A stretch of 44,043 nucleotides of DNA, from the NCBI GenBank assembly GCA_964390385.1, contig CAYMJH010000005.1:1-44043 (forward strand). Reading direction: 5' to 3'. The position numbers and the translations under genes were made by a program. The notes under the pieces were generated by a model, which was not told where the DNA came from, searched no databases, and saw only the letters and a program-made list of their open reading frames with translations. Below are positions 1 to 30,470 of this stretch, in pieces (within the stretch, counting starts at the first letter, position 1; each line of letters opens with the position of its first letter). The DNA is from an uncultured Bacteroidales bacterium (GTDB lineage Bacteria > Bacteroidota > Bacteroidia > Bacteroidales > UBA10428).

Positions 1-924
1 AGGCATATCCTTTTGCATGGAATACCACATATGCCTTTTGAATACGTCGGTCTTCTGATGGTAAGCGGGCCCCTGCTCGGTCTGAAGGACGATATCGGTA
101 TCCGGAAAATCCTGCTGGGCATCAATATAGGCCGCCAGCTCATAATTGAGGCAGCATTTAAGCTTGCTGCACTGGCCGGCAAGTTTCTGAGGGTTGAGTG
201 AAACTTCCTGGTAACGGGCGGCATTGGTGGTAACCGACACAAAATTAGTGATCCAGGTGGAGCAGCAAAGCTCGCGGCCACACGACCCGATCCCGCCGAT
301 ACGCCCCGCTTCCTGCCGGGCCCCGATCTGCTTCATCTCGATCCTTACCTTGAAACGGTCGGCCAGTATCTTAATAAGCTCACGAAAGTCAACCCTGTCG
401 TCGGCGATATAATAGAAAATGGCTTTGGTGCCATCGCCCTGGTACTCCACATCCCCGATCTTCATTTCGAGTTTGAGATCCTCGGCTATTTTACGGGACT
501 TGATCATGGTGGTGTGTTCCATCGTCATGGCCTCCATCCATTTTTCGATGTCGGCGGGTTTGGCTTTCCGGTATACCTTCTTGAATTCGGTGTTATCGGG
601 TGCGATGTTATTGCGCAGCAATTGCCTCCGCACCAACACGCCCGTGAGTGACACGATACCGATGTCGTGGCCCGGATTGGCCTCCACGGCAACGATATCA
701 CCCCTTTTCAGTTTCAGGTTATTGACGTTTTTAAAAAAGCCCTTGCGTGTGTTCTTGAAGCGGACTTCCACGGTATCAACCTGCTGGAAGTCTTCCGGTA
801 TATCGCTGAAATAGTCAAAGGTATCCAGTTTGTAACACCCTGTGTCCAAACAGGCAGATGCATCGGAAGCATCTTTTATCATTTTGCGGCAACCCCGCCC
901 GTTATAGGCTGTATTTGAATTCAT
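1..924 (-). CDS. PSP1/RicT(YaaT)-like domain protein, C-terminal end cut by window edge
   Basis: The reverse frame is open from ATG (924-922) to base 1. It is absent from the ORF track because there is no stop inside the window. My translation is MNSNTAYNGRGCRKMIKD...VEVRFKNTRKGFFKNVNNLKLKRGDIVAVEANPGHDIGIVSLTG...GSCGRELCCSTWITNFVSVTTNAARYQEVSLNPQKLAGQCSKLKCCLNYE, a typical PSP1 domain pattern. Plus-strand ORFs 13-918 are shadow frames. Confidence 0.85.
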   Translation of the reverse strand, partial: MNSNTAYNGRGCRKMIKDASDASACLDTGCYKLDTFDYFSDIPEDFQQVDTVEVRFKNTRKGFFKNVNNLKLKRGDIVAVEANPGHDIGIVSLTGVLVRRQLLRNNIAPDNTEFKKVYRKAKPADIEKWMEAMTMEHTTMIKSRKIAEDLKLEMKIGDVEYQGDGTKAIFYYIADDRVDFRELIKILADRFKVRIEMKQIGARQEAGRIGGIGSCGRELCCSTWITNFVSVTTNAARYQEVSLNPQKLAGQCSKLKCCLNYELAAYIDAQQDFPDTDIVLQTEQGPAYHQKTDVFKRHMWYSMQKDMP

Positions 925-1192
925 GGCTGTTTCATAAGTTGGTCCGGCCACGTCGCTCTTCTTTATCCCTGAATCATTTGACAGGAATTATTATGCATAC
1001 AATCCGGCCGGATTGAAAAACGTCAAATTTAGTGATTTTTATGAAATCAAATTTTTAAATTGTAAAACCATGTTGAATAACTAAGCTACTTCCCTGTTTC
1101 CGAAAATTTTTTTGATTCCGTTTCATATTGTACCTTTAGTCAATCATTCTTTGGTACGGATCTATGTTTGAATTTCTGTCAGCAATAGTTGA

Positions 1193-1324
1193 CCTGTTCA
1201 GCAGCTCGAAAGCGAACTGCAGAAAAGAGACATCAGTCAACTTATGTTGGAAGATGATATTGATGCTGCCTACATCCATCCCTGGTGTAACCGGCTGAAA
1301 TTAAATACTTATGGTTTATTTTGA
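1193..1324 (+). pseudogene. possible 3' remnant (~43 codons) of a nucleotidyltransferase-like/TA-type gene
   Basis: The frame opens straight after an in-frame TGA (1190-1192). It reads PVQQLESELQKRDISQLMLEDDIDAAYIHPWCNRLKLNTYGLF* with no plausible start. Its stop lies 1 nt before the ATG at 1326 of the next small ORF, an operon-like coupling. The family assignment comes only from my memory of C-terminal 'D..Y...W...L.L' tails. Confidence 0.25.
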
Positions 1325-1586
1325 TATGAAAGACACAACAATAGATATGGCTGATCTTCAATACCGGCTGGTCATGGAAATGACCCCTCAGCAGCGGTTT
1401 AAAATGGGCATCGAAATGGCCGATGAAGGTATGAAACTTATGAAAGTAGGTATTTTAGCAGAAAAAGGGAAACTTTCGGAGGATGAACTTCGCCTTGAAG
1501 TAATTCGCAGGCTGAGGAAATTTGACCCTTCATTATGGTGGCTGGATGACAGGGAAGCTCACATTTCGTATGATTGTCCTGGGTAA
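1311..1586 (+). CDS. small hypothetical helical protein (86-91 aa)
   Basis: ORF track; alternative ATG at 1326 (MKDTTIDMADLQYRLV...). No recognisable motif. Charged and helical-looking. Confidence 0.45.
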   Translation: MVYFDMKDTTIDMADLQYRLVMEMTPQQRFKMGIEMADEGMKLMKVGILAEKGKLSEDELRLEVIRRLRKFDPSLWWLDDREAHISYDCPG

Positions 1587-1639
1587 TAGAAAAAACCGTT
1601 CAAGGTTAGTTCAGGTTCCCGGGAGGATAAGCCGGATCA

Positions 1640-1946
1640 TTTTTGTTTGTCTGAACCGGGATTTATGGGATTTCAGGATTATGGGATAGGGCTGCCCCTC
1701 TGTTGCTGTCCTTTCACTAATTGACGGTTGTACCGTCAATTTCGCGATCCCAAATCAGTTGGGGAAAAGTAAGAGTACCTGAATTATTATTTTCAAAAAA
1801 AACAACTTCAACCATAAAATATTTGCCCGAAAACTTGACTTGCATCGTTTTTTTTTTTTTTCTTTTACTTCAATATTAGATCACAGTTTAGCGGCAAGAT
1901 TGATTTTTTTATGTTGGGTGAAATGGAACTATGATTTAATAAGCAT
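1640..1946 (+). repeat. conserved non-coding block, copy A (upstream of T9SS paralogue A)
   Basis: Aligns by eye with 4023-4347 at roughly 85% identity. Copy B carries one 21-nt insertion. Identical stretches include ccgtcaatttcgcgatcccaaa and ttcaaccataaaatatttgcccgaaaacttgacttg. Contains the hairpin aattgacggt-tgt-accgtcaatt (1719-1741). Confidence 0.9.
1848..1861 (+). repeat. homopolymeric T14 tract inside block A
   Basis: Counted directly: 14 consecutive T, flanked by cg and c. Confidence 0.95.
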
Positions 1947-2051
1947 AATTTTATTATACAATCGTATCGGGTGTTTCAATGATTATTGCCTATAAAAATG
2001 AATACTGTCTGGTATTCTGTTAAATAGATTTATTGATTAATAATAAGCATT

Positions 2052-2963
2052 ATGAAAAAAATATTTTTTATTGCATTGCTGTTCTGTGCAGTTGCGGTGA
2101 ATGCGCAGCAACCAATCTGTTTAGGTAACATGGCCGGAGGCGATCTTGACTTTGAGTATCCTCCACAATATGATTGCGTCAGTATTGATACAAATCACGT
2201 TTGGTTTATAGCAAAAGCTGAAAAGCAAATTTTATTTGCAGACAACCCATATAATAAACATTCACTCATTACCGATACATCCGGTTATTATAAAAACAAT
2301 ATAAGGTCTTCTGTAAAATTCAAATTGTGCTTTAGCTGGGCTGAGGATTATACCATAATGTTCTGGCATAAATACGATTTTGAAAAGAACAAAGACGGTG
2401 GAATTATTGAAACGTCTCATGACAATGGGGTAACATGGCAAAATATTCTTGATGACACATTTATCATGAACAATGTCAAAGATACAGGCGGGCTTTATAG
2501 CAATTCAGATATTATCAGTTCGTATGAAAACCAGCCTGGTTATACAGGTCGGCAACCGGAAGATAAATCAGTATGGATAGAATTTTATGCCAGGGAATAT
2601 ATGTTGGAAGATACAATGTTACTGCGATTTACCATTTCAACAGATTCAAATGATGCCCAAAACGAAGGCTGGATGCTGGACGATTTTTCCTTTTTCGGAG
2701 GAGAAACCGCAATTGAGTATCATATTAATGAAATTAAACCCCTTATTTATCCCAATCCGGCGAATAGATATATTAGAGTTGAAAATATGCGGGACAGAGT
2801 TAATGAAGTAAAGGTTATTTCGTTAACAGGCGAAACAATGCTTGAACAAAAAGGCGACAACATTTCAGTTTTGAATATCGAAAGTCTTTCAGCCGGGCTT
2901 TATATTGTAATCAGCATGAATGAAAGGAACGATTTCAATGTATCAAAATTTGTGAAATTATGA
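2052..2963 (+). CDS. secreted T9SS cargo protein, paralogue A (beta-sandwich-like N-domain with one Asp-box, C-terminal Por/T9SS sorting domain)
   Basis: Signal peptide MKKIFFIALLFCAVAVNA|QQ. Asp-box S-x-D-x-G-x-T-W (TSHDNGVTW). C-terminus IYPNPANRYIRVEN...VKVISLTGETML...LSAGLYIVISM...SKFVKL fits the T9SS type-A CTD (TIGR04183-like). Confidence 0.85.
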   Translation: MKKIFFIALLFCAVAVNAQQPICLGNMAGGDLDFEYPPQYDCVSIDTNHVWFIAKAEKQILFADNPYNKHSLITDTSGYYKNNIRSSVKFKLCFSWAEDYTIMFWHKYDFEKNKDGGIIETSHDNGVTWQNILDDTFIMNNVKDTGGLYSNSDIISSYENQPGYTGRQPEDKSVWIEFYAREYMLEDTMLLRFTISTDSNDAQNEGWMLDDFSFFGGETAIEYHINEIKPLIYPNPANRYIRVENMRDRVNEVKVISLTGETMLEQKGDNISVLNIESLSAGLYIVISMNERNDFNVSKFVKL

Positions 2964-3061
2964 ACAGAATAATATTGCTTTTATTTCTGTTCATTTCCAC
3001 TTTTCTAGTTGATTATTACATCGTAAATTTTTTAAAACAGCCACAAGCAGGTTGCACCTGA
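2960..3061 (+). pseudogene. 33-codon stub resembling only the signal peptide of a downstream operon partner
   Basis: ATG at 2960 overlaps the TGA of the upstream gene (ATGA), exactly as at 5363-5366. Reads MNRIILLLFLFISTFLVDYYIVNFLKQPQAGCT*, a hydrophobic signal-like start followed by an early stop. Confidence 0.35.
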
Positions 3062-3219
3062 CTACATTGTTCAATCAGGTAAAGTTTGTTTAAACAAATC
3101 TCACTAAGATGTAACTTATCTCGTCAAAAACGGCAGCTTCAGTAGGACGGGATTTCAATAAATTAAAAAACATAGTTCAGACAATTGCACAGGAAGGTAA
3201 TGGATATTATAAAATGTAA

Positions 3220-3264
3220 ATGCCCCTTTATGGGGGGCATCGGTCCGGGGATGCTATCCCCGGA
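3220..3264 (+). other. two adjacent GC-rich hairpins in an AT-rich spacer
   Basis: atgcccc/ggggcat (3220-3226 / 3234-3240) and tccgggga/tccccgga (3244-3251 / 3257-3264). No T-run follows. They lie about 55 nt upstream of the NYN start. Confidence 0.6.
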
Positions 3265-3317
3265 GCTGTTAAAGTTGAATACAAAAATAAATGTATTTTT
3301 GTATAAACGCAAGTTTA

Positions 3318-3938
3318 ATGGATAAAAATATCAACAGGATAATTGCTTACATCGATGGTTTTAACCTGTATTTCGGCATGAAAGATGCCGGTTACGGGTA
3401 TTGTAAATGGCTCGATATAAATAAACTAATAAGGAGTTATCTTACCTCAAACCAGCAACTTATTGCCGTAAAGTATTTTACAAGCAGGGTAACCAACAAC
3501 CCGCCCAAACAAAAAAGACAGTCAACCTATATTGAAGCGTTAGAAACAACAGGCATTAAAGTCGTTTATGGTTTATATAAGGCTAAAATTATTGAATGTA
3601 TGAATTGCGGGCATTTATGGTCAATTGCCAACGAAAAAATGACCGATGTAAACATAGCAACTCATCTCATAATCGATGCATTTCAGGACAGTTATGATAC
3701 AGCAGTTCTTGTTTCGGGCGATAGCGATTTGGTACCCCCTATAAAAGCGGTGCATGAGAATTTCAACAGAAAAGCTGTTTCGGTATTCTTTCCGCCTGCA
3801 CGGCACAATGTTTCTGTGGCAGCAGCTGCCAGAGGTTCTCAGATAATAGGTCGTAAGAAACTTGTTGACAATCAGTTTCCGCCGGAAGTTAAGAAAAATA
3901 ACGGGTATATACTCCGTAAACCTACAGATTGGTTGTAA
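3318..3938 (+). CDS. NYN-domain (LabA/PIN-like) predicted ribonuclease with internal CxxC
   Basis: IAYIDGFNLYFG...YFTSRV...CMNCGHLW...EKMTDVNIATHLIIDAF...DTAVLVSGDSDLVPPIKAV is the NYN (PF01936-like) acidic-residue pattern. The ORF track start is 3291; the ATG at 3318 (MDKNINR) is more likely. Confidence 0.8.
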   Translation: MDKNINRIIAYIDGFNLYFGMKDAGYGYCKWLDINKLIRSYLTSNQQLIAVKYFTSRVTNNPPKQKRQSTYIEALETTGIKVVYGLYKAKIIECMNCGHLWSIANEKMTDVNIATHLIIDAFQDSYDTAVLVSGDSDLVPPIKAVHENFNRKAVSVFFPPARHNVSVAAAARGSQIIGRKKLVDNQFPPEVKKNNGYILRKPTDWL

Positions 3939-4022
3939 ATTCAATTTGCTATTCGGGATTGGGGATTATACAAGTAATTATGAGTTGTTATAGTTACACC
4001 CTTGTTCGGCTGAGATTCGTCT

Positions 4023-4347
4023 TTTTTGTTTGTCTGAATTGGGACCTGCCTTGCCGTCAGGCTGGTTTACGTGATTTCAGGATTGCGGGATAGGGTTGCT
4101 CCCCTGCTGCTGTTCTTTTACCAATTTACGGTTGTGCCGTCAATTTCGCGATCCCAAAGCAGCTGAGGAAAAGTAAGTGTATGTGATTTATTATTTTCAA
4201 AAAAAAGCAATTTCAACCATAAAATATTTGCCCGAAAACTTGACTTGTATCGTTTTTTTTTTTTCTTTTACTTTAATATTAAGTCACAGTTTATCGGCAA
4301 GATTGATTATTATGTTGGGTGAAACAGAACTATGATTTAATAAGCAT
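4023..4347 (+). repeat. conserved non-coding block, copy B (upstream of T9SS paralogue B)
   Basis: See copy A. Includes the extra cctgccttgccgtcaggctgg segment. Confidence 0.9.
4253..4264 (+). repeat. homopolymeric T12 tract inside block B
   Basis: Counted directly: 12 consecutive T at the position homologous to the T14 in copy A. Confidence 0.95.
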
Positions 4348-4448
4348 TACATCTTTTTTTTCATACGGAATATCATTGTTATTCGATTTATTTTATTCAT
4401 TAAGGAATATGTCTAATCGTTTATATAAATATAAAACAGTAAAAAGTT

Positions 4449-5366
4449 ATGAAAAATTTATTATTTATTTCTTTTGTGTGCTGTTCAATTCCCGGATTTT
4501 CACAGGAATTACTGAGCCTGGGTCGTATTGGAGCAGATTTAGACTTTGAAAGACCTGAAGAATATAGATTTATTAAAATTGATACTAATAATCTATGGTT
4601 TATCACAGAACCAGGAAAAGAAATTCTATTTCTTCCGCCCAATGCAGGTTTTGGCTCACATGCTTTGCTTAGTGATACTTCATTATATTATAGAAGCAAT
4701 ACAATAGCTACCTTCCAGTTCAAGCTTCAGATGCAAGAAGAAGGGAATACTTATTTGATAAATTTTGACCATAAATATGATTTTGAGAAAAACATTGACG
4801 GAGGCATTATAGAGACTTCATATGATAATGGTTTGACCTGGCAAAATATCATTTTTGATACGATTATAATGAATCATGTCTGTGAATTGAGAAATTTTTA
4901 TTCATTATCCGATACAATCCTATCGCTTGGAAACCAGCCAGGATTTACGGGCACACAAAGCAGCATGACTCTTGTTATTATTGAATTTTATCCAAGTGAA
5001 TATTTGAGAGAAGATACAATGACATTAAGATTTAAATTTGGTTCAGATTCAAATAATACCAATAATGAGGGATGGATGCTTGATCTTTTTCATTTCGGAG
5101 GTCAATTTTGGGATGATTTAAAAGAATATTATCAATCTTATATAAAAATTCATCCTGTTCCGGCAAATGACAGGCTTTTATTGGAATCTGAATATGAAAG
5201 GATTTCACATGTTGAGGTCTATTCTTTGACAGGACAACTTTTATTAAGCGATATAGGGAATAATCTTAATTCTGTTGATATATCAAAGCTGAATAAAGGA
5301 TTTTATTTTTTAATGTTAGAGTGTGAAAGTAGTAAAAGATGGATTTCAAAATTTTGTAAAATATGA
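4449..5366 (+). CDS. secreted T9SS cargo protein, paralogue B
   Basis: Signal peptide MKNLLFISFVCCSIPGFS|QE. Shares HKYDFEKNxDGGIIETSxDNGxTWQNI and NEGWMLD with 2052-2963, at roughly 40-45% identity by eye. CTD: IHPVPANDRLLLES...VEVYSLTGQLL...LNKGFYFLML. Confidence 0.85.
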   Translation: MKNLLFISFVCCSIPGFSQELLSLGRIGADLDFERPEEYRFIKIDTNNLWFITEPGKEILFLPPNAGFGSHALLSDTSLYYRSNTIATFQFKLQMQEEGNTYLINFDHKYDFEKNIDGGIIETSYDNGLTWQNIIFDTIIMNHVCELRNFYSLSDTILSLGNQPGFTGTQSSMTLVIIEFYPSEYLREDTMTLRFKFGSDSNNTNNEGWMLDLFHFGGQFWDDLKEYYQSYIKIHPVPANDRLLLESEYERISHVEVYSLTGQLLLSDIGNNLNSVDISKLNKGFYFLMLECESSKRWISKFCKI

Positions 5367-7858
5367 AAAAGCTTTTACTTCTTCATTTTTTTATGGCTTT
5401 TTGGGCTGTAGCTTATAGCCAGACTGTATATAAAACATATTACGGAGATTATGTATATCCAGTTGATACTTTCCGCGTTCTGAATTTTTTCATAAATATT
5501 ATTTATGATCAATGCGAAAATTGTGATCCATACGAGGACCCTGCTAAAACACCCAATTGGATTCCTGGACCACCAAATACTATTAACACCAATCCACCTG
5601 CTTATCTGGCCAATTTCATGGACTCAGATTTGGGCACTGAATTACACGGTACCTATACGAAAAGATATGCAAGTGCTTCTTTTAACAAATTTATTATTCT
5701 TGGGGATAATGTTGTTGTTAATATTGCACAATCAAGAGTTACTCCTAACAATACTAATGGCTATTTTGGATATACTAAGTTACTTGATGCTGCAGTAAGC
5801 CTAATAAATGAATATGGAGGGTTAACGACAATTAATGGGCACAATAGTATTTCAGACTATGATGATATAGATGCAACAATGACCAATCGATTTCTTACAA
5901 AATCACAAGATTACCATAATAATCGTATAGATTTTTTACAGGTCTATTTTAGAAACAGTACAGATACTACAGGAGGGATATCAGGTGGAGGAAGAAGTTA
6001 TATCCGAATGACAGAATATCTTAAATTTTTAAATGGGGATTCTTGCAGAAATGAACTTGGCACGGTACAAGGTGCATTGGGAAATACTGATTTGTCAAAT
6101 CCACAATATCCTACCGCTGATATTCATGAAATGGGGCATAATATTTTTGGTCAAAGCAATTCAATTCATATGGGAGGCGGGGGTCCCTTAAATTCTGGTT
6201 GTCTGACAACCCTCGAATCAAATGGTGGTTGGTCATTTATGGGGGGATCATACAGCAGCCTGGTTTCGTGTAGCGGATTTGACAGGTGGAGATTAGATTG
6301 GAAACCAAGTGGATGTAACTTTTCTATAGCAGTTCAGAATGCAAATTCAGATATTACAAGATCAGATGGGGCAAAAACATTTTATATGCGTGATTTTATC
6401 ACAGCCGGTGATGCTATTAGAATAAAATTGCCCTATAAAGATGTTGGAAGTCTTGATCAATATATATGGCTTGAAAATCATCGGCTTAAACCGAATAATG
6501 GCCATGTGGATTATCCTGCATATTGGGAATATGAGTGCAAAGATGATGGAGTCCCTGGCGTATATGCATATTACCAGGTAGGAAAAGACATTCGAGAAAA
6601 TACAAACAGAGATACATTGTTGCCACCTTTAACAGACCATCTTGTACCCATTGATGCAGAAGGCAATTGGGATTTCATTTATGCCCCTGATTCAAGTTTA
6701 CCTTGCATAAATGATGGTAAAACAAAGGCAAGACACCAAATTTATAACAGGGAAAATCCCTTTTCCGGATATAATGATCAGGGAGTTCATTTTTTTGTTC
6801 CTGATGGAGTTAACACGCTTAACACTATAACACACAGAATAGAATGCCTTATTAAAGAAAAAGGTGGTGTTACCTATAATAAGCAATCAAATCTTGGAGA
6901 CAATTGGGATGCCTTTACAAATAATTCTTCAATAAATATTTCATCGAATCCTACACCCTTCAATGTAATTACCTATCATCATTTACATAATGGAGGAGCA
7001 GTATTTAAAAACAGTAACTGGACCGATAACGTTAAAATCCACTTAAGCGGCCTTCGGATTGATTTTACCGAGCAGACCGGAGGCATTATGAAAGTTGATA
7101 TCCGCTGGGATGATTATAATGTAACGAAAAATGTTACCTGGACAGGGGATATAGCGTTACATGAGAGCGTTAATCTGATTTCAGGAAAAACAATAACATT
7201 TGATCAAAATTATACGCCGAACAAACACACAAGAGACGCTGTAACCGGTGTGTTCGCCGGTCCGACTTATTTCAGATGTCTGACTAATTCTACATTTGTG
7301 ATGCAGCCTTCTTCGAATGTTATCCTTCAAAACCTCAGCTCTTTTATTCTTGAGTCGGGCAGCCAGCTTGAGATCAATGACGGTGCAGTTTTCACTGTCA
7401 AAAGCGGATGTACACTTCAGATTAAAAACGGAGCAAATTTTGTAGTGAAAGGAACCGGACGGATTGAGGTGGAGAACGGCGGGTATCTTTGCATTGAAGC
7501 CGGTGCATCCGGCCAGTTGCAGGATCCTTTGAGTGTAATTAATTTCAGAAACGGTTCAATATTAGGAGTAAATACTGATGTGATTTCAGATCCCGGAACA
7601 TGTGTTGAAGATATAGCAGCCGATATAAGGGAATACGTTAGCGGGCCCGGTAAGATCAACCTCTATATCCAAAATATAAATTACCTGATCGACACCTATG
7701 AAACCGGCGAAAACATTTATGTCGGTTATGATGTAACCGATCCGCCCTATGGTAATGTGCTTATCAATGGCGCGAAAGTTACACTGGATGCCAATGGGGA
7801 AATATTCATAAAGAATGGATTTGAGATGGATTCAGGCAGTGAACTGGAAACTAAATAA
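5363..7858 (+). CDS. 831-aa secreted protein with HExxH zinc-metallopeptidase motif and beta-helix-like C-terminal repeats; no T9SS CTD seen
   Basis: Signal peptide MKKLLLLHFFMAFWAVAYS|QT. HEMGH at nt 6125-6139. C-terminal G/N-rich repeats (SGSQLEINDGAVFTVKSGCTLQIKNGANFVVKGTGRIEVENGG). Start overlaps the upstream stop (ATGA). Confidence 0.75.
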   Translation: MKKLLLLHFFMAFWAVAYSQTVYKTYYGDYVYPVDTFRVLNFFINIIYDQCENCDPYEDPAKTPNWIPGPPNTINTNPPAYLANFMDSDLGTELHGTYTKRYASASFNKFIILGDNVVVNIAQSRVTPNNTNGYFGYTKLLDAAVSLINEYGGLTTINGHNSISDYDDIDATMTNRFLTKSQDYHNNRIDFLQVYFRNSTDTTGGISGGGRSYIRMTEYLKFLNGDSCRNELGTVQGALGNTDLSNPQYPTADIHEMGHNIFGQSNSIHMGGGGPLNSGCLTTLESNGGWSFMGGSYSSLVSCSGFDRWRLDWKPSGCNFSIAVQNANSDITRSDGAKTFYMRDFITAGDAIRIKLPYKDVGSLDQYIWLENHRLKPNNGHVDYPAYWEYECKDDGVPGVYAYYQVGKDIRENTNRDTLLPPLTDHLVPIDAEGNWDFIYAPDSSLPCINDGKTKARHQIYNRENPFSGYNDQGVHFFVPDGVNTLNTITHRIECLIKEKGGVTYNKQSNLGDNWDAFTNNSSINISSNPTPFNVITYHHLHNGGAVFKNSNWTDNVKIHLSGLRIDFTEQTGGIMKVDIRWDDYNVTKNVTWTGDIALHESVNLISGKTITFDQNYTPNKHTRDAVTGVFAGPTYFRCLTNSTFVMQPSSNVILQNLSSFILESGSQLEINDGAVFTVKSGCTLQIKNGANFVVKGTGRIEVENGGYLCIEAGASGQLQDPLSVINFRNGSILGVNTDVISDPGTCVEDIAADIREYVSGPGKINLYIQNINYLIDTYETGENIYVGYDVTDPPYGNVLINGAKVTLDANGEIFIKNGFEMDSGSELETK

Positions 7859-7876
7859 ATTTAAATAATTAATGCT

Positions 7877-9061
7877 ATGAAGAAGTTCATAATTGTAACG
7901 TTATCATTAATAGCTGCTCTGACAACAATAGTCAATGCACAGATTAAGGTCATTTCAAATGGGAATGTAGGTATTGGATTGACTGCATCTCCAGCAGAAA
8001 AATTACATATCAACGGCTCAGTCAGAGGTAATCAAAGTGGTGCGCTTCGTATAAATTCTGGTGAAGGTTATATTGATGTTGGACCTAAAAATAATAGTTT
8101 TGCACATTTCTTCACGGATAGATATCAATATTATTTTGATAAAAAGATTATTATTGGAGAAGGGATGATTGCTAGTTATCATTCTGTTGATCTGAAATTA
8201 TGCACTGGTTTGTATTATACTACTAGAATTCACGTGAGCAATTCAACAGGTAATGTTGGCATTGGCAGAACTCCGCATTCAACATATAAACTTGATGTAG
8301 AAGGTGATGTTGCCTCTTATGGACAAGTATTATCATCAGACATACGTTTGAAAGATAATATCATGCCCCTTGAGACGGATATAGAAAAAATGGATTTATT
8401 AAATCCTATAACCTTTACATTTAAAAAACCTGAAATTGAAAAAACAAGATCGGACATAATTGATACTACTATTAATGAAATATTAGCAAATCCTAATAAC
8501 GAACAGTTTTACGATCAGATCAGGTACGGTTTTTCTGCCCAGGAGCTGCAAAAAGTATTTCCCGACCTTGTAACAGCTGATGAAAACGGTTTTCTGCGTG
8601 TTAATTACATTGGAATGATCCCTGTTTTGGTTGATGTATTAAAAGAACAACACCAACAAATTGAAACCCTGCAAACAATCATTACCCTTCATGAAGAGGA
8701 AATCGTAAATATTAAAAAGCAATTGGAAACTTTGCAAACATCCGGCTCAACACTAAAAAGTACCGGCTCAGTTTCAACTGAAAAGATAGTTACAACCAAC
8801 AGTTCAGCTTTATATCAAAATACCCCGAATCCTTTTACCCTTGACACCAGAATTGAATATTTTCTGGCCGATAGCATTAATAAGGCATCGATTATCATTC
8901 ATGATCTTCAGGGCAGTGAAATCAAACAAATACAATTATCAGCAACAGGTGCCGGAAATGTCATAATCAATGGTTCAGAATTAAAGGCAGGAATGTATTT
9001 ATATACGCTCATTACCAATAATAGTATTGTGGATACAAAAAGGATGATATTGACACAGTAA
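7877..9061 (+). CDS. tail-fibre-like protein with peptidase S74 intramolecular chaperone domain, coiled coil and T9SS CTD
   Basis: Signal peptide ...TTIVNA|QI. Repeated GNVGIG..P...L.V.G motifs. SSDIRLKDNIMPL...RYGFSAQELQKVFPDLV...VNYIGMIPVLVDVLKEQHQQIETLQ is the S74/endosialidase-chaperone pattern. C-terminus NPFTLDTRIEYFL...LKAGMYLYTL fits a T9SS CTD. Confidence 0.8.
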   Translation: MKKFIIVTLSLIAALTTIVNAQIKVISNGNVGIGLTASPAEKLHINGSVRGNQSGALRINSGEGYIDVGPKNNSFAHFFTDRYQYYFDKKIIIGEGMIASYHSVDLKLCTGLYYTTRIHVSNSTGNVGIGRTPHSTYKLDVEGDVASYGQVLSSDIRLKDNIMPLETDIEKMDLLNPITFTFKKPEIEKTRSDIIDTTINEILANPNNEQFYDQIRYGFSAQELQKVFPDLVTADENGFLRVNYIGMIPVLVDVLKEQHQQIETLQTIITLHEEEIVNIKKQLETLQTSGSTLKSTGSVSTEKIVTTNSSALYQNTPNPFTLDTRIEYFLADSINKASIIIHDLQGSEIKQIQLSATGAGNVIINGSELKAGMYLYTLITNNSIVDTKRMILTQ

Positions 9062-9107
9062 TTTAATAAACAAAACATTATTGAATAGCAATTGATTATC
9101 ATTTTAT

Positions 9108-10244
9108 TTATTTCTTCAGCAAACTCCCGGCCTTCAGCATCAGGTCGAGTAAAATGATCTTGCTGTTGCCGTTGCGCTCTATATCGTAGACAGCTTTGTT
9201 GAGTTCTTCAGTTAAAGGTGCGACATTATGCGCCCGGACATAATTTGAAAACTTTATGGAAAACTCTTCTTCGTCCGCATTCATAAAATTCAGTCCGGGC
9301 TGGTTGAAGTGCTTTACCATATTTTCACGAATCAGCCTCAGGGCATATTCAAGGAAGGCTTTTTGCTTTTCGCGCGTCAGGGCATTCAGGGTATCAATGG
9401 TTTTCATGCCTGCCTCGATATTGCCGGTGTATCCTTCCCGCATGAAATTACCGAAAGTCATCAGCAGGAAACTTTCCTCCTCGTCCTCACCGATGAGTTC
9501 CAGGGCCCTGGCATAGTTTCCCGAGGCCAGGCGGGCAATATGCGCTGATTTTGCGGCTTCAACACCGTTCCTGGTCTGCAGGGCGCTGATTATGTCCTCA
9601 TCGTCAACGAGGGGCACTTTTACCGGAAAGCATCTCGACCGGATGGTGGCGAGCAACAGGTCGGGATTCTCGGTGATCAGCAAAAAAATGGTCATGGCAG
9701 GCGGCTCCTCCAGCAGTTTCAGCAGTTTGTTGGAAGCCACGTCGTGCATCTTCTCGGCCATCCAGATGACGGCGATCTTAACATCCGACTCGTAGGATTT
9801 GAATGATAGCTTTTTGGCGATGGCATCGCTTTCCTTTTCCTTGATCAGTCCCTGCTTGTTCTCCAGCTCAATGAAGGAATACCAGTCGTTAAGCCCGGCA
9901 TAGGGCTGCTGCAGCACAAAACTCCTCCATTCCGGGAGGAAATCGTCACAATACGGATCATCTTTTTTTGAGGCGGTGGTATTCACCGGGAAGAGAAAAT
10001 GAAGGTCGGGGTGCACAAGCTTCCGGTATTTCAGGCAGCTGGGGCATTGGCCGCAGGAGTCTTCCTGTTTTTCTCCGGTGCACGAGATGTATTGCGCATA
10101 GGCTATGGCCAGGGGAAGGGCGCCGGTGCCAGCTTGACCGAAGAACAGCTGGGCATGGCTTACCCGGTTGTTTTTTACCGATTGCACAAGCCTCTTTTTA
10201 AGGGCTGCCTGGCCTATTATTTCACTGAAAAACATAAAACACAA
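9108..10244 (-). CDS. holB: DNA polymerase III subunit delta'
   Basis: IIGQ...RVSHAQLFFGQAGTGALPLAIAYAQYISC...CGQCPSCLKYRKLVHPDLHFLFP plus SRC motif (RSRCFPVKV). Confidence 0.9.
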   Translation of the reverse strand: MCFMFFSEIIGQAALKKRLVQSVKNNRVSHAQLFFGQAGTGALPLAIAYAQYISCTGEKQEDSCGQCPSCLKYRKLVHPDLHFLFPVNTTASKKDDPYCDDFLPEWRSFVLQQPYAGLNDWYSFIELENKQGLIKEKESDAIAKKLSFKSYESDVKIAVIWMAEKMHDVASNKLLKLLEEPPAMTIFLLITENPDLLLATIRSRCFPVKVPLVDDEDIISALQTRNGVEAAKSAHIARLASGNYARALELIGEDEEESFLLMTFGNFMREGYTGNIEAGMKTIDTLNALTREKQKAFLEYALRLIRENMVKHFNQPGLNFMNADEEEFSIKFSNYVRAHNVAPLTEELNKAVYDIERNGNSKIILLDLMLKAGSLLKK

Positions 10245-16071: not shown

Positions 16072-16086
16072 GGAAAAGTAATCTTT

Positions 16087-16114
16087 GTCACTTGTCACTT
16101 GTCACTCGTCACTA
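16087..16114 (+). repeat. tandem heptamer array GTCACTT x2, GTCACTC, GTCACTA
   Basis: Read directly. Overlaps the stop and the last codons (..SDE*) of the minus-strand gene 16102-17616. Confidence 0.9.
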
Positions 16115-27243: not shown

Positions 27244-27275
27244 AAGTGACAAGTGACAAGTGACAAGTGACGAGT
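27244..27275 (+). repeat. tandem heptamer array AAGTGAC x4 (+GAGT)
   Basis: Begins 2 nt after the rfbB stop. It is the reverse complement of the GTCACTn arrays at 27367-27394 and 16087-16114. Confidence 0.92.
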
Positions 27276-27366
27276 ATAAACCTTATTTAACTGAGATATG
27301 ATGATTTGTGATTAGGATATTTTCGAACACATTATTACCTGATGCTCTCGTCCCTTTCCTTTTCTT

Positions 27367-27394
27367 GTCACTTGTCACTAGTCACTGGTCACTA
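27367..27394 (+). repeat. tandem heptamer array GTCACTT/GTCACTA/GTCACTG/GTCACTA
   Basis: Ends 2 nt before the glmS stop codon (minus strand). Inverted relative to 27244-27271, with 25/28 bases complementary. Confidence 0.92.
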
Positions 27395-30418: not shown

Positions 30419-30470
30419 ATCACCCCTCCTTCTCCCGATGAATCGGGATTCGGAGGGCAAAGCAAATCAC
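30419..30470 (-). repeat. 52-bp palindromic (REP-like) element, copy 1
   Basis: atcacccctccttctcccgatgaatcgggattcggagggcaaagcaaatcac. Nested stems ccctcc/ggaggg and tcccga/tcggga with symmetric ttc/ttc internal loops. Overlaps the tcdA stop codon. Confidence 0.88.

Follow-up and report, generated by a model that had tools for sequence, protein, structure and literature searches.

Genes and features of the island

The window, by which we mean the whole 44,043-nucleotide stretch of DNA analysed here, comes from an uncultured Bacteroidales bacterium and carries an 8-kb low-GC island, inserted so that it separates a small ORF from holB. This site is empty in Zod_Metabat.988, where the small ORF adjoins holB (L016), and in binchicken_co259_28, where PSP1 adjoins holB (L017). 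The island contains two non-coding blocks in direct orientation, each placed ahead of one of two paralogous genes, and the following genes and blocks make up the locus:

1557–9107, no strand: low-GC island, 33–40% GC against about 50% elsewhere in the window
1637–1946, forward strand: block copy A, non-coding direct repeat (blastn and alignment)
2052–2963, forward strand: gene A, 303 aa, A-type, with a T9SS type A sorting domain
2960–3061, forward strand: stub ORF whose start matches an ~830-aa gene
3318–3938, forward strand: NYN-domain gene
4020–4347, forward strand: block copy B, non-coding direct repeat (blastn and alignment)
4449–5366, forward strand: gene B, 305 aa, B-type, with a T9SS sorting domain
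5363–7858, forward strand: mosaic 831-aa gene with a HEMGH motif
7877–9061, forward strand: third module member, with a Peptidase_S74 chaperone domain and a T9SS sorting domain

In Zod_Metabat.988, the orthologue of gene A (91% amino acid identity, dS 0.17) is followed directly by an 830-aa gene, with no NYN gene, second block or gene B. The first ~13 codons of the window's stub match the start of this ~830-aa gene, and the homology stops at about position 2998, which marks a recombination junction. Window positions 1745–2996 align with Zod_Metabat.988 at 92.7%, and beyond the break the homology resumes at 7033 with 88–92% identity. The NYN gene, flanked by the truncated A cassette and block B, has its own perfect TAnnTTTG box at 3294. 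The PSP1/holB site of Zod_Metabat.37 likewise holds a B-type gene, to which gene B is 64% identical in amino acid sequence. The 831-aa gene that follows gene B is B-type in codons 1–300 and Zod_Metabat.988-like in codons ~515–831 (80–96% amino acid identity, dS 0.3–0.57), and the switch of type falls between codons ~400 and ~515. No integrase or transposase was detected among the island ORFs tested, and the right end of the island (9062–9108) resembles neither the block nor the spacers of the empty sites significantly.

The tandem arrangement is not an assembly chimera, as independent Logan contigs show: L013 (SRR8925742) matches window positions 1807–4241 at 100% and links gene A, the NYN gene and the left part of block B, while L011 (SRR23426541) matches positions 4218–9200 at 99.98%.

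Extent and identity of the repeat blocks

The similarity between the two blocks is real and far beyond chance. Identical residues occupy 275 of the 309 aligned columns (89%), and blastn aligns copy A with copy B at 88.1% over 286 nt (E 3e-100), with a further 22 of 25 nt matching at the left end; the refined limits extend 3 nt further to the left than those of a preceding sequence-only reading of this DNA. The longest identical runs measure 36 nt (TTCAACC...GACTTG) and 22 nt. At 1946/4347 the identity falls from ~90% to ~50%, and the ~100 nt 5′ of each ATG (1947–2051 versus 4348–4448) are 50% identical, the noise level for AT-rich DNA. That reading had described these proximal regions as unalignable and the blocks as far more alike than the genes downstream, and both observations hold: proteins A and B share 45% identity, and the codon-aligned genes share 58% of their nucleotides with saturated synonymous sites (dS 1.54), against 89% in the block.

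The blocks fall into two parts that differ in identity and occurrence, and several smaller features can be placed within or beside them:

1637–1744, forward strand: left sub-block of copy A, with a GGATT-rich run and a hairpin; counterpart at 4020–4148
1745–1946, forward strand: right sub-block of copy A; counterpart at 4149–4347
1719–1741, forward strand: 10-bp hairpin of copy A (z = −3.8 versus shuffles)
1848–1861, forward strand: T14 homopolymer of copy A, read from the sequence
1874–1941, forward strand: imperfect 15–16-nt inverted repeat or long-range stem, with arms at 1874–1889 and 1926–1941
1947–2051, forward strand: proximal upstream region of gene A, 85.6% identical to Zod_Metabat.988
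4045–4065, forward strand: 21-nt insertion in copy B, cctgccttgccgtcaggctgg, from the alignment of the copies

The left sub-block is 84.4% identical between copies A and B and is common only to these two in-window copies, being missing from the copy in Zod_Metabat.988 (Z). The right sub-block is 91.5% identical between A and B, and its identities with Z are 94% for A and 87.4% for B. The GGATT-rich segment pointed out in the sequence-only reading is present in copy A at 1658–1690, but in copy B it is split by the 21-nt insertion. This insertion is a small palindromic REP-like hairpin that is also found in the empty site of Zod_Metabat.988, where the score of the local alignment was equalled by 1 of 300 shuffles. 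A derivation of the left sub-block from the ancestral PSP1/holB spacer or from the Zod_Metabat.988 empty site was rejected, as no similarity except this hairpin was seen. The T14 homopolymer corresponds to T12 in copy B (4253–4264) and to T9CTT in Zod_Metabat.988, and the independent assemblies of the same copies show no difference in tract length at the assembly level (L013 100%, L011 99.98%).

Occurrence of the block outside the locus

The 44-kb window holds two copies of the block, both ahead of the paralogues. A 21-mer from the right part, searched against 185,579 species genomes, returned one true copy, that of Zod_Metabat.988, and one chance match; the true copy comprises the right sub-block only (L003, 5697–5897) and is contiguous with the gene A orthologue. 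A 22-mer from the left part has no copies in the species genomes, and a 20-mer from the right part has none in the JGI metagenomes or IMG/VR. The GGATT pattern of the left part (23 nt, 21 specified bases) was absent from IMG/VR and gave only chance matches in the JGI metagenomes, to an ABC-transporter gene and a telomere-like repeat. Exact matches to the proteins of gene A, gene B, the NYN gene and the small ORF, sought in order to find a donor or strain variants, were limited to short Logan contigs, which end inside the 36-nt identical run; a donor genome with the NYN–block B arrangement was not found among them.

Upstream of nine other homologues from eight genomes or metagenome contigs (L004–L009, L014 and L025), no block similarity was detected with blastn at word size 7 or nhmmer --max, and the upstream regions of 11 loci, compared with nhmmer and blastn at word size 7, share no element common across genomes. 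Analogous arrangements exist in two other genomes whose upstream repeats are unrelated in sequence to the window block. In Zod_Metabat.37 a 152-nt upstream block, 90% identical between two modules, occurs in only two copies in the genome collection, both at module loci, and in L007 repeated upstream blocks surround tandem paralogues and a stub ORF. A string common by eye to the window and Zod_Metabat.37 blocks, GGCAAGAT(T)GATTT, was discarded as not significant, since shuffling gave p of about 0.01–0.17 for the local alignment and the 8-mer is no more frequent than expected by chance.

RNA, coding and promoter potential

The whole window has no Rfam 15 match at gathering thresholds, and a search of positions 1500–4500 returned only sub-threshold noise, the best hit scoring 28.9 bits against a gathering score of 48.6 bits. 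Folding of the whole blocks carries no stability signal relative to shuffles (z = 0.68 for copy A and 0.26 for copy B on the forward strand, −1.22 for copy A on the reverse strand). In an alifold model of the three copies, which has little power because the sequences are 87–94% identical, 0 of the 43 predicted pairs are compensatory, three have one-sided wobble-compatible changes and two are broken. The 10-bp hairpin is as the sequence-only reading described it, its counterpart in copy B (about 4123–4145) carrying one wobble-compatible change and one T–C mismatch; folding of the latter is no better than shuffles (z = −0.65), and the hairpin is absent in Zod_Metabat.988. The 3′ stem, with arms at 4277–4292 and 4327–4342 in copy B, is kept in all three copies, and both A/B substitutions in it are wobble-compatible; its folding z-scores are modest (−1.6 to −2.4). 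A small protein-coding gene was rejected, as the 42–52-aa ORFs of copy A are lost or frame-shifted in copy B and Zod_Metabat.988 through indels in A/T runs and a missing start codon, and the only ORF common to all copies has 7 codons (1911–1934).

The stem encloses the best conserved promoter-like element, with a −33 TTTA at 1887 and a −7 TATGTTGG at 1910. Judged by the Bacteroidetes sigma-ABfr consensus (−7 TAnnTTTG with a −33 TTTG at about 19–21 nt), the −7 part matches 5/6 positions and the −33 part 3/4 in all three copies. The spacer is 17 nt long in copy B and 19 nt long in the other two. No perfect TAnnTTTG box lies upstream of gene A or gene B, although such boxes sit 17–30 nt 5′ of other start codons in the same genome. 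Scans for sigma-70-type promoters and terminators gave counts equal to shuffled expectation, with no terminator inside either block and, by reading, no terminator-like hairpin ahead of the T-run. Of the functions offered earlier, a shared promoter with a leader appears the most plausible one for the block, the consensus match being partial; a structured cis-regulatory RNA or small RNA finds no backing in the Rfam, folding and covariation results. Overall, the module's promoter or other upstream regulatory DNA probably resides in the block, with modest evidence of constraint.

Gene types and relative ages

In Zod_Metabat.37 one locus has an A-like gene (72% identical to A) and another a B-like gene (64% identical to B). 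Judged by this and by the dS of 1.54 between them, A and B are ancient alternative types. The non-coding blocks are considerably younger. Block divergence K amounts to 0.09 between the right sub-blocks of A and B, 0.175 between their left sub-blocks and 0.06 between the right sub-blocks of A and Z. Between the window and Zod_Metabat.988, the dS is 0.17 for gene A and 0.3–0.57 for the C-terminus of the 831-aa gene and the S74 gene, while housekeeping genes of the same two genomes have reached 0.94 (holB) and 0.88 (PGK). The block K of 0.09–0.17 is thus similar to the dS of the recently exchanged gene A, which argues that the blocks share a recent ancestor. The sequence-only reading had proposed that the block has been conserved under a different constraint since the paralogues split; this is mostly wrong, since the other family members examined lack the block and its divergence equals that of the recently exchanged gene A.

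The right block differs between A and Z at 6.0% of positions and the proximal 100 nt at 14.4% (Fisher p = 0.019), but when the raw third-codon positions of gene A are taken for comparison, conservation of the right block is not significantly higher (p = 0.24). In the right sub-block, 10 sites have A = B ≠ Z and 2 have B = Z ≠ A (p = 0.04), a weak test with three sequences. In Zod_Metabat.37, where the two upstream blocks differ by 10%, the S74 genes of the two modules have a dS of 0.55 and the 300-aa genes are saturated. It is important to point out that these comparisons rest on MAGs.

Probable origin of the blocks by recombination, and alternatives

The blocks are young and the genes behind them old, and we consider it likely that the ~89% likeness of the blocks reflects this youth and stems mainly from recombination in a patchwork island, not from a special RNA. 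The divergence of block and gene is discordant (K 0.09–0.175 against dS 1.54), the boundaries are sharp, other family members lack the block, and independent junctions are found in the neighbouring DNA. The earlier suggestion of a recombination or gene-conversion site agrees with this, the block being a young segment at mosaic junctions.

According to this explanation, each block would be a copy of the non-coding 5′ ‘head’ of a three-gene module that evolves fast, is exchanged horizontally and consists of a 300-aa T9SS cargo gene, a gene for an ~830-aa HExxH protein and a gene for an S74/T9SS protein. Types A and B of the module would be distinguished by the 300-aa gene and by the opening ~300 codons of the 830-aa gene, and head and tail would instead follow recent host-lineage history. 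A truncated A cassette (head, gene A and 13-codon stub) would have been joined to the NYN gene, a second head, gene B and a B-type 830-aa start, via an illegitimate junction at about 2998 and a homologous junction inside the 830-aa gene at about 6700–7030. The second head may have been imported with donor DNA or copied in situ by gene conversion, and the sharp edges at 1946/4347 and 1637/4020 would represent recombination breakpoints. The order of these events is tentative, since the block has three copies only. If the right half carries the operon promoter or upstream regulatory DNA, as we infer, this would explain its slightly slower divergence.

A variant of this explanation, which we regard as possible but clearly less likely, is concerted evolution in situ, perhaps favoured by co-regulation of both genes: a ~310-nt conversion tract or small duplication would have put the upstream region of one paralogue before the other, and the second head would not be imported. 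The restriction of the left sub-block to the two in-window copies fits such copying, as does the excess of A = B ≠ Z sites, which hints at homogenisation in situ more than at simple import; recurrent conversion would likewise suit the distant modules of Zod_Metabat.37, with 90% block identity next to a neighbour dS of 0.55. However, a divergence of 11–16%, the 21-nt indel and several small indels imply that conversion, if there was any, is not of recent date, the site-pattern test has little power with three sequences, and copying alone leaves the stub, the NYN gene and the mosaic 831-aa gene unexplained. More doubtful still is purifying selection on a functional RNA, be it a long structured 5′ leader or a small RNA of T9SS cargo operons. 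It could draw on the slow right sub-block relative to the proximal 100 nt, on the synonymous divergence in Zod_Metabat.37 beside a 10% block difference, and on the 15–16-bp stem with its two wobble-compatible changes in all three copies. Set against these are the lack of any Rfam family at gathering or E ≤ 10 apart from noise, whole-block folding like that of shuffles on either strand, the absence of compensatory pairs, a strongest hairpin that is broken in copy B and missing in Zod_Metabat.988, the lack of a terminator before the T-run, and other family members without a homologous upstream element.

We judge it very improbable that the block is a small MITE-like non-autonomous mobile element, or the repeated terminus or att region of integrative islands accreted in tandem, even though no more than ~80 nt separate block A from the island's left edge and a second module starts with block B, as in such accretion. 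By reading and without statistics, a weak inverted TTTTGTTT(G/A)T match can be seen near the right end of the island, and in L025 a family member has a tRNA fragment and an integrase next to it. However, TCATTTTTGTTTG... and ...TTTAATAAGCAT at the two ends of the block are not inverted copies of each other, no inverted-repeat pair was reported there and no flanking target-site duplication is visible, and the island ORFs tested include no integrase or transposase, nor does the far end of the island match the block significantly. The small mobile element of the sequence-only reading is further disfavoured by copy number, as there is a single copy in Zod_Metabat.988, no further copy in the window, and none in other species genomes, the JGI metagenomes or IMG/VR, and the Zod_Metabat.37 analogue is confined to the two module loci. 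Deletion or amplification between the direct repeats is mechanistically possible.

Implications

The feature is ordinary in kind and the locus mildly interesting. It bears witness to the horizontal exchange of a mosaic three-gene T9SS cargo module that has two ancient cassette types and occupies different chromosomal sites in related uncultured Bacteroidales. The locus also holds a lesson in method: a non-coding block that is better conserved than its genes within one genome need not signify special constraint, since the comparison with relatives indicates that the block is simply younger and placed at recombination junctions.

A more speculative idea, which we hold to be rather unlikely, is that each genome keeps a lineage-specific, selected non-coding head (a promoter with a long leader, or a small RNA) before every module copy, and that the head and the 830-aa tail serve as portable homology anchors for the exchange of A and B cassettes. 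If so, swapping or stacking of the cassettes would amount to an exchange system that varies secreted or surface proteins, and the unrelated upstream blocks in Zod_Metabat.37 and L007 would be further instances of it. Should the heads prove functional and reused as anchors, they would offer a simple model for the diversification of secreted and surface proteins in Bacteroidota.

Comparison with known systems

The multicopy FopS small RNAs of Bacteroides measure 65–70 nt and are conserved between species; they come with canonical sigma-ABfr promoters and with terminator hairpins, and their number reaches 15 per genome in some Bacteroides species, B. thetaiotaomicron having 14 (PMC11697453). Like FopS and GibS (PMC11697453), the blocks are paralogous intergenic non-coding sequences from Bacteroidota that are tied to outer-membrane or surface functions. 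Unlike FopS, the block is ~310 nt long, has no canonical promoter or terminator, and occurs in one or two copies in one lineage only.

A likeness to the invertons of Bacteroidales lies in the imperfect inverted repeat (1874–1889/1926–1941) that brackets the best promoter-like element. An invertible promoter was nevertheless rejected, because a gap of only ~36 nt separates the arms, there is no recombinase gene in the vicinity and the repeats at issue are direct. Known invertible promoter regions of Bacteroidales are far longer than this arm spacing.

The vlp and vsp surface lipoprotein genes of Mycoplasma combine a conserved 5′ upstream or promoter region, which includes a homopolymer tract, with divergent coding regions. 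The window likewise has a conserved non-coding 5′ region before divergent secreted or surface paralogues and a long homopolymer within it (T14/T12/T9). However, its two copies are 89% identical as opposed to nearly identical, tract length does not vary between independent assemblies, no site-specific recombinase is present, and both phylum and secretion system differ.

Mosaic variable loci, such as the capsule and O-antigen loci, arise by homologous recombination and by homology-facilitated illegitimate recombination (HFIR), the latter described in naturally transformable bacteria, and have conserved flanks on either side of divergent allelic cassettes. The window departs from this scheme in that both cassette types stand in tandem, neither having replaced the other, and in that the common left flank is a short non-coding block and not a conserved gene. 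In other respects it conforms: the locus switches sharply between ~90% identical and unalignable sequence, divergent A and B cassettes lie between a common head and tail, one junction falls inside a homologous gene and the other is illegitimate and leaves a stub, and the island is closer between genomes than the housekeeping genes are.

The repeated segment and the paralogues downstream

A ~310-nt non-coding segment occurs in two direct copies, block A and block B, each upstream of one of two T9SS-sorted paralogues of ~300 aa (gene A and gene B). These features lie between PSP1 and holB in the following order:

1-924, minus strand: PSP1, left flank of the island
1326-1586: small antitoxin-like ORF, left flank
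1637-1946: block A (left sub-block to 1744, right sub-block from 1745)
2052-2963: gene A, T9SS type A sorting domain at the C-terminal end
then a stub ORF and a NYN gene
4020-4347: block B (left sub-block to 4148, right sub-block from 4149)
4449-5366: gene B, T9SS type A sorting domain at the C-terminal end
5363-7858: 831-aa HEMGH gene
then an S74-chaperone/T9SS gene
9108-10244, minus strand: holB, right flank

The blocks match by blastn over 286 nt at 88.1% (E 3e-100), with a 25-nt extension on the left, and in a three-way alignment they agree at 275 of 309 columns (84.4% in the left part, 91.5% in the right), with identity unbroken for up to 36 nt. Genes A and B share 45% of residues and 58% of codon-aligned nucleotides, with a saturated dS of 1.54, and the ~100 nt 5′ of the two ATGs do not align (50%). 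The sequence-only reading had described this arrangement accurately, including the hairpin at 1719-1741 with its two changes in block B. The tandem layout is confirmed by two independent Logan assemblies covering 1807-4241 at 100% (L013) and 4218-9200 at 99.98% (L011); these k=31 contigs end exactly within the 36-nt identical run.

Block B carries an extra 21 nt (4045-4065), one of the small palindromic CCTGCC...GGCAGG elements recurrent in the intergenic DNA of these MAGs; another lies at about 11255-11278 of L016, a contig of the related MAG Zod_Metabat.988. Related CCCGATGAATCGGG hairpins occur at 30434, at a 59-nt repeat (30419/31905) and at the Zod_Metabat.988 empty site. Heptamer arrays (GTCACTT/AAGTGAC)n are likewise intergenic (16085-16113, 27245-27274, 27364-27393); two of these, separated by 89-96 nt and lying between convergent genes, make up an inverted pair of 30-36 nt.

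The ~30 nt 5′ of the gene A start (2019-2052; …GATTAATAATAAGCATTATG) weakly resemble the final ~30 nt of the block (…GATTTAATAAGCAT), with 27/34 positions alike against 4319-4349 / 1918-1946 and E about 0.8. This likeness hints that the block may once have abutted the start codon, in which case the ~100-nt proximal region would be a later insertion.

A mosaic island of two module types

The GC content of ~1000-9100 is 32-40%, compared with ~50% in the remaining window. PSP1 and holB are adjacent, 183 nt apart, in the related MAG binchicken_co259_28, and in Zod_Metabat.988 (L016) the small ORF stands ~150 nt from holB; about 1557-9107 is therefore an insertion of 8 kb, and its site is empty in these two MAGs. 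The same site in a third MAG, Zod_Metabat.37, is occupied by a B-type module. On the left flank, 1164-1300 is the remnant of a DUF6036 nucleotidyltransferase gene that has lost ~360 nt internally relative to the intact 174-aa gene of Zod_Metabat.988 (L016 11520-12044). Since its neighbour, the small ORF, has a sub-threshold Pfam match to an Rv0078B-related antitoxin, the two are probably a decayed toxin-antitoxin pair.

Genes A and B have about 80 homologues, several of them in a three-gene module with a ~830-aa gene and an S74 gene, in both gene orders. The gene A protein is 91% identical to its Zod_Metabat.988 counterpart and 72% to one Zod_Metabat.37 protein; the gene B protein has 64% identity to a second Zod_Metabat.37 protein, whose gene occupies the same PSP1/holB site. 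A and B thus belong to old, separate types.

The block is absent upstream of nine other homologues (blastn at word size 7; nhmmer). Its sole further copy, in Zod_Metabat.988, covers only 1745 rightwards and continues without a break through the proximal 100 nt into the gene A orthologue (92.7% over 1745-2996). That module sits at another chromosomal site, 3′ of a FecR/STN cluster and a HicBA pair. The upstream stretch (L003 25-5567) encodes a FecR anti-sigma factor, an STN/CarboxypepD_reg outer-membrane protein and HicB/HicA; an ECF-sigma tie to regulation of the module is possible there. In a metagenome contig (L025 4954-6430), a family member adjoins a tyrosine integrase and a tRNA 3′ fragment, which suggests that some module copies may travel on integrative elements.

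In Zod_Metabat.988 the 830-aa gene directly follows gene A. Homology to the window ends ~13 codons into that gene, at about 2998, which accounts for the stub ORF, and restarts at 7033 with 88-92% identity. The window's 831-aa gene is a mosaic with type-specific codons 1-300 and a lineage-specific C-terminus: codons 1-300 are B-type (69-80% aa identity to the B-linked Zod_Metabat.37 gene versus 57-61% to genes linked to A), codons 515-831 share 80-96% of aa with Zod_Metabat.988, and the region around codons 400-515 is hypervariable in all pairwise comparisons. The protein, which has no sequence match in Pfam or PDB, bears a zinc-protease-like HEMGH motif.

Relative ages

Divergence of the island parts and of housekeeping genes (K, Jukes-Cantor)
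holB, window vs Zod_Metabat.988: dS 0.94
PGK, window vs Zod_Metabat.988: dS 0.88
831 C-terminus and S74, window vs Zod_Metabat.988: dS 0.3-0.57
gene A, window vs Zod_Metabat.988: dS 0.17
left sub-block, copy A vs copy B: K 0.175
right sub-block, copy A vs copy B: K 0.09
right sub-block, copy B vs Zod_Metabat.988: K 0.14
right sub-block, copy A vs Zod_Metabat.988: K 0.06

The module is closer to Zod_Metabat.988 than are the housekeeping genes (dS 0.17-0.57 versus ~0.9). Block divergence is about that of the recently exchanged neighbouring gene, far below that of the genomes and vastly below that of gene A versus gene B. The contrast between block and genes is one of age, brought about mainly by recombination. 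The proposal that the block has been under different constraint since the paralogues split is not borne out: because the block is missing ahead of the other family members compared, the contrast does not stem from long-term selection on it since that split. Recombination, also among the options put forward, agrees with a young block at mosaic junctions.

Possible functions of the block

A structured RNA or sRNA, as had been suggested, finds no favour in the data: the Rfam search of the block gave no match, whole-block folding is not better than shuffles, none of 43 alifold pairs is compensatory across the three copies, and the strong block A hairpin is degraded in block B and absent in Zod_Metabat.988. 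No hairpin ahead of the T-run was seen on reading, and a terminator scan found none inside either block. The suggested small mobile element was likewise rejected, with no TIRs or TSDs seen, no recombinase and no dispersed copies. A coding block was discarded as its ORFs are not kept in frame. One 7-codon ORF (1911-1934, MLGEMEL; 4312-4335, MLGETEL in block B), which overlaps the promoter-like -7 element, is conserved in each of the three copies but is probably a chance feature.

The right sub-block is most plausibly the promoter of the module or its upstream regulatory DNA. Between block A and Zod_Metabat.988 it differs by 6.0% versus 14.4% in the proximal 100 nt (p = 0.019), a divergence not significantly lower than that of raw third-codon positions (p = 0.24). 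A -33 TTTA / -7 TATGTTGG pair is kept in all three copies and matches 3/4 and 5/6 of the Bacteroidetes promoter consensus against which it was scored. On either side of the pair lie the arms of an imperfect inverted repeat of 15-16 nt (z = -1.6 to -2.4), in which both A/B differences allow wobble pairing. Because other boxes in this genome, 17-30 nt 5′ of start codons, are perfect TAnnTTTG, this promoter assignment is tentative. The left sub-block, which contains REP-like pieces, has the appearance of intergenic filler.

Parallels and assembly of the island

In Zod_Metabat.37, A-type and B-type modules at two distant loci have in common a 152-nt non-coding block, 90% identical and including a G8-G9 homopolymer, 280-430 nt upstream of the first module gene (L005 4571-4718 and L014 6600-6751); in the whole species-genome collection it occurs at those two loci only. 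The proximal region between block and gene does not align between the modules, and dS is 0.55 for the S74 paralogues and saturated for the 300-aa genes. In a third genome (L007), the ~400-600-nt upstream region of tandem 300-aa paralogues recurs 2.35-2.5 kb downstream, before a 13-codon stub ORF (5209-5794 and 7749-8143, 78-96% identity); REP-like hairpins (GCTCC-TGAC-GGAGC) and, at 4862-5197, a tandem array of a 21-nt unit are part of these repeats. Neither block has detectable homology to that of the window. Around the A/B family, then, upstream DNA has repeatedly undergone partial duplication and homogenisation, which fits frequent recombination and leaves room for a shared regulatory logic.

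The starting module would have resembled that of Zod_Metabat.988, with a head (as the blocks may be called), gene A, the 830-aa gene and S74. Onto it, NYN, a head, gene B and a B-type start of the 830-aa gene would have been joined, with an illegitimate first junction at about 2998 and a second, by homology, within the 830-aa gene. The second head may instead have arisen in situ through gene conversion rather than been joined from elsewhere, and two observations lean that way: the left sub-block is common to the copies in this genome only, and sites with A=B≠Z outnumber those with B=Z≠A by 10 to 2 (Z, Zod_Metabat.988; p = 0.04, from three sequences). A more novel reading, in which the heads act in regulation and double as anchors for cassette exchange, is unlikely. 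Overall, the block is a recently shared upstream flank, probably promoter-bearing, at recombination junctions of a T9SS cargo island that is a mosaic and has been exchanged horizontally. The repeat is real and its explanation ordinary, a new example of a known phenomenon.
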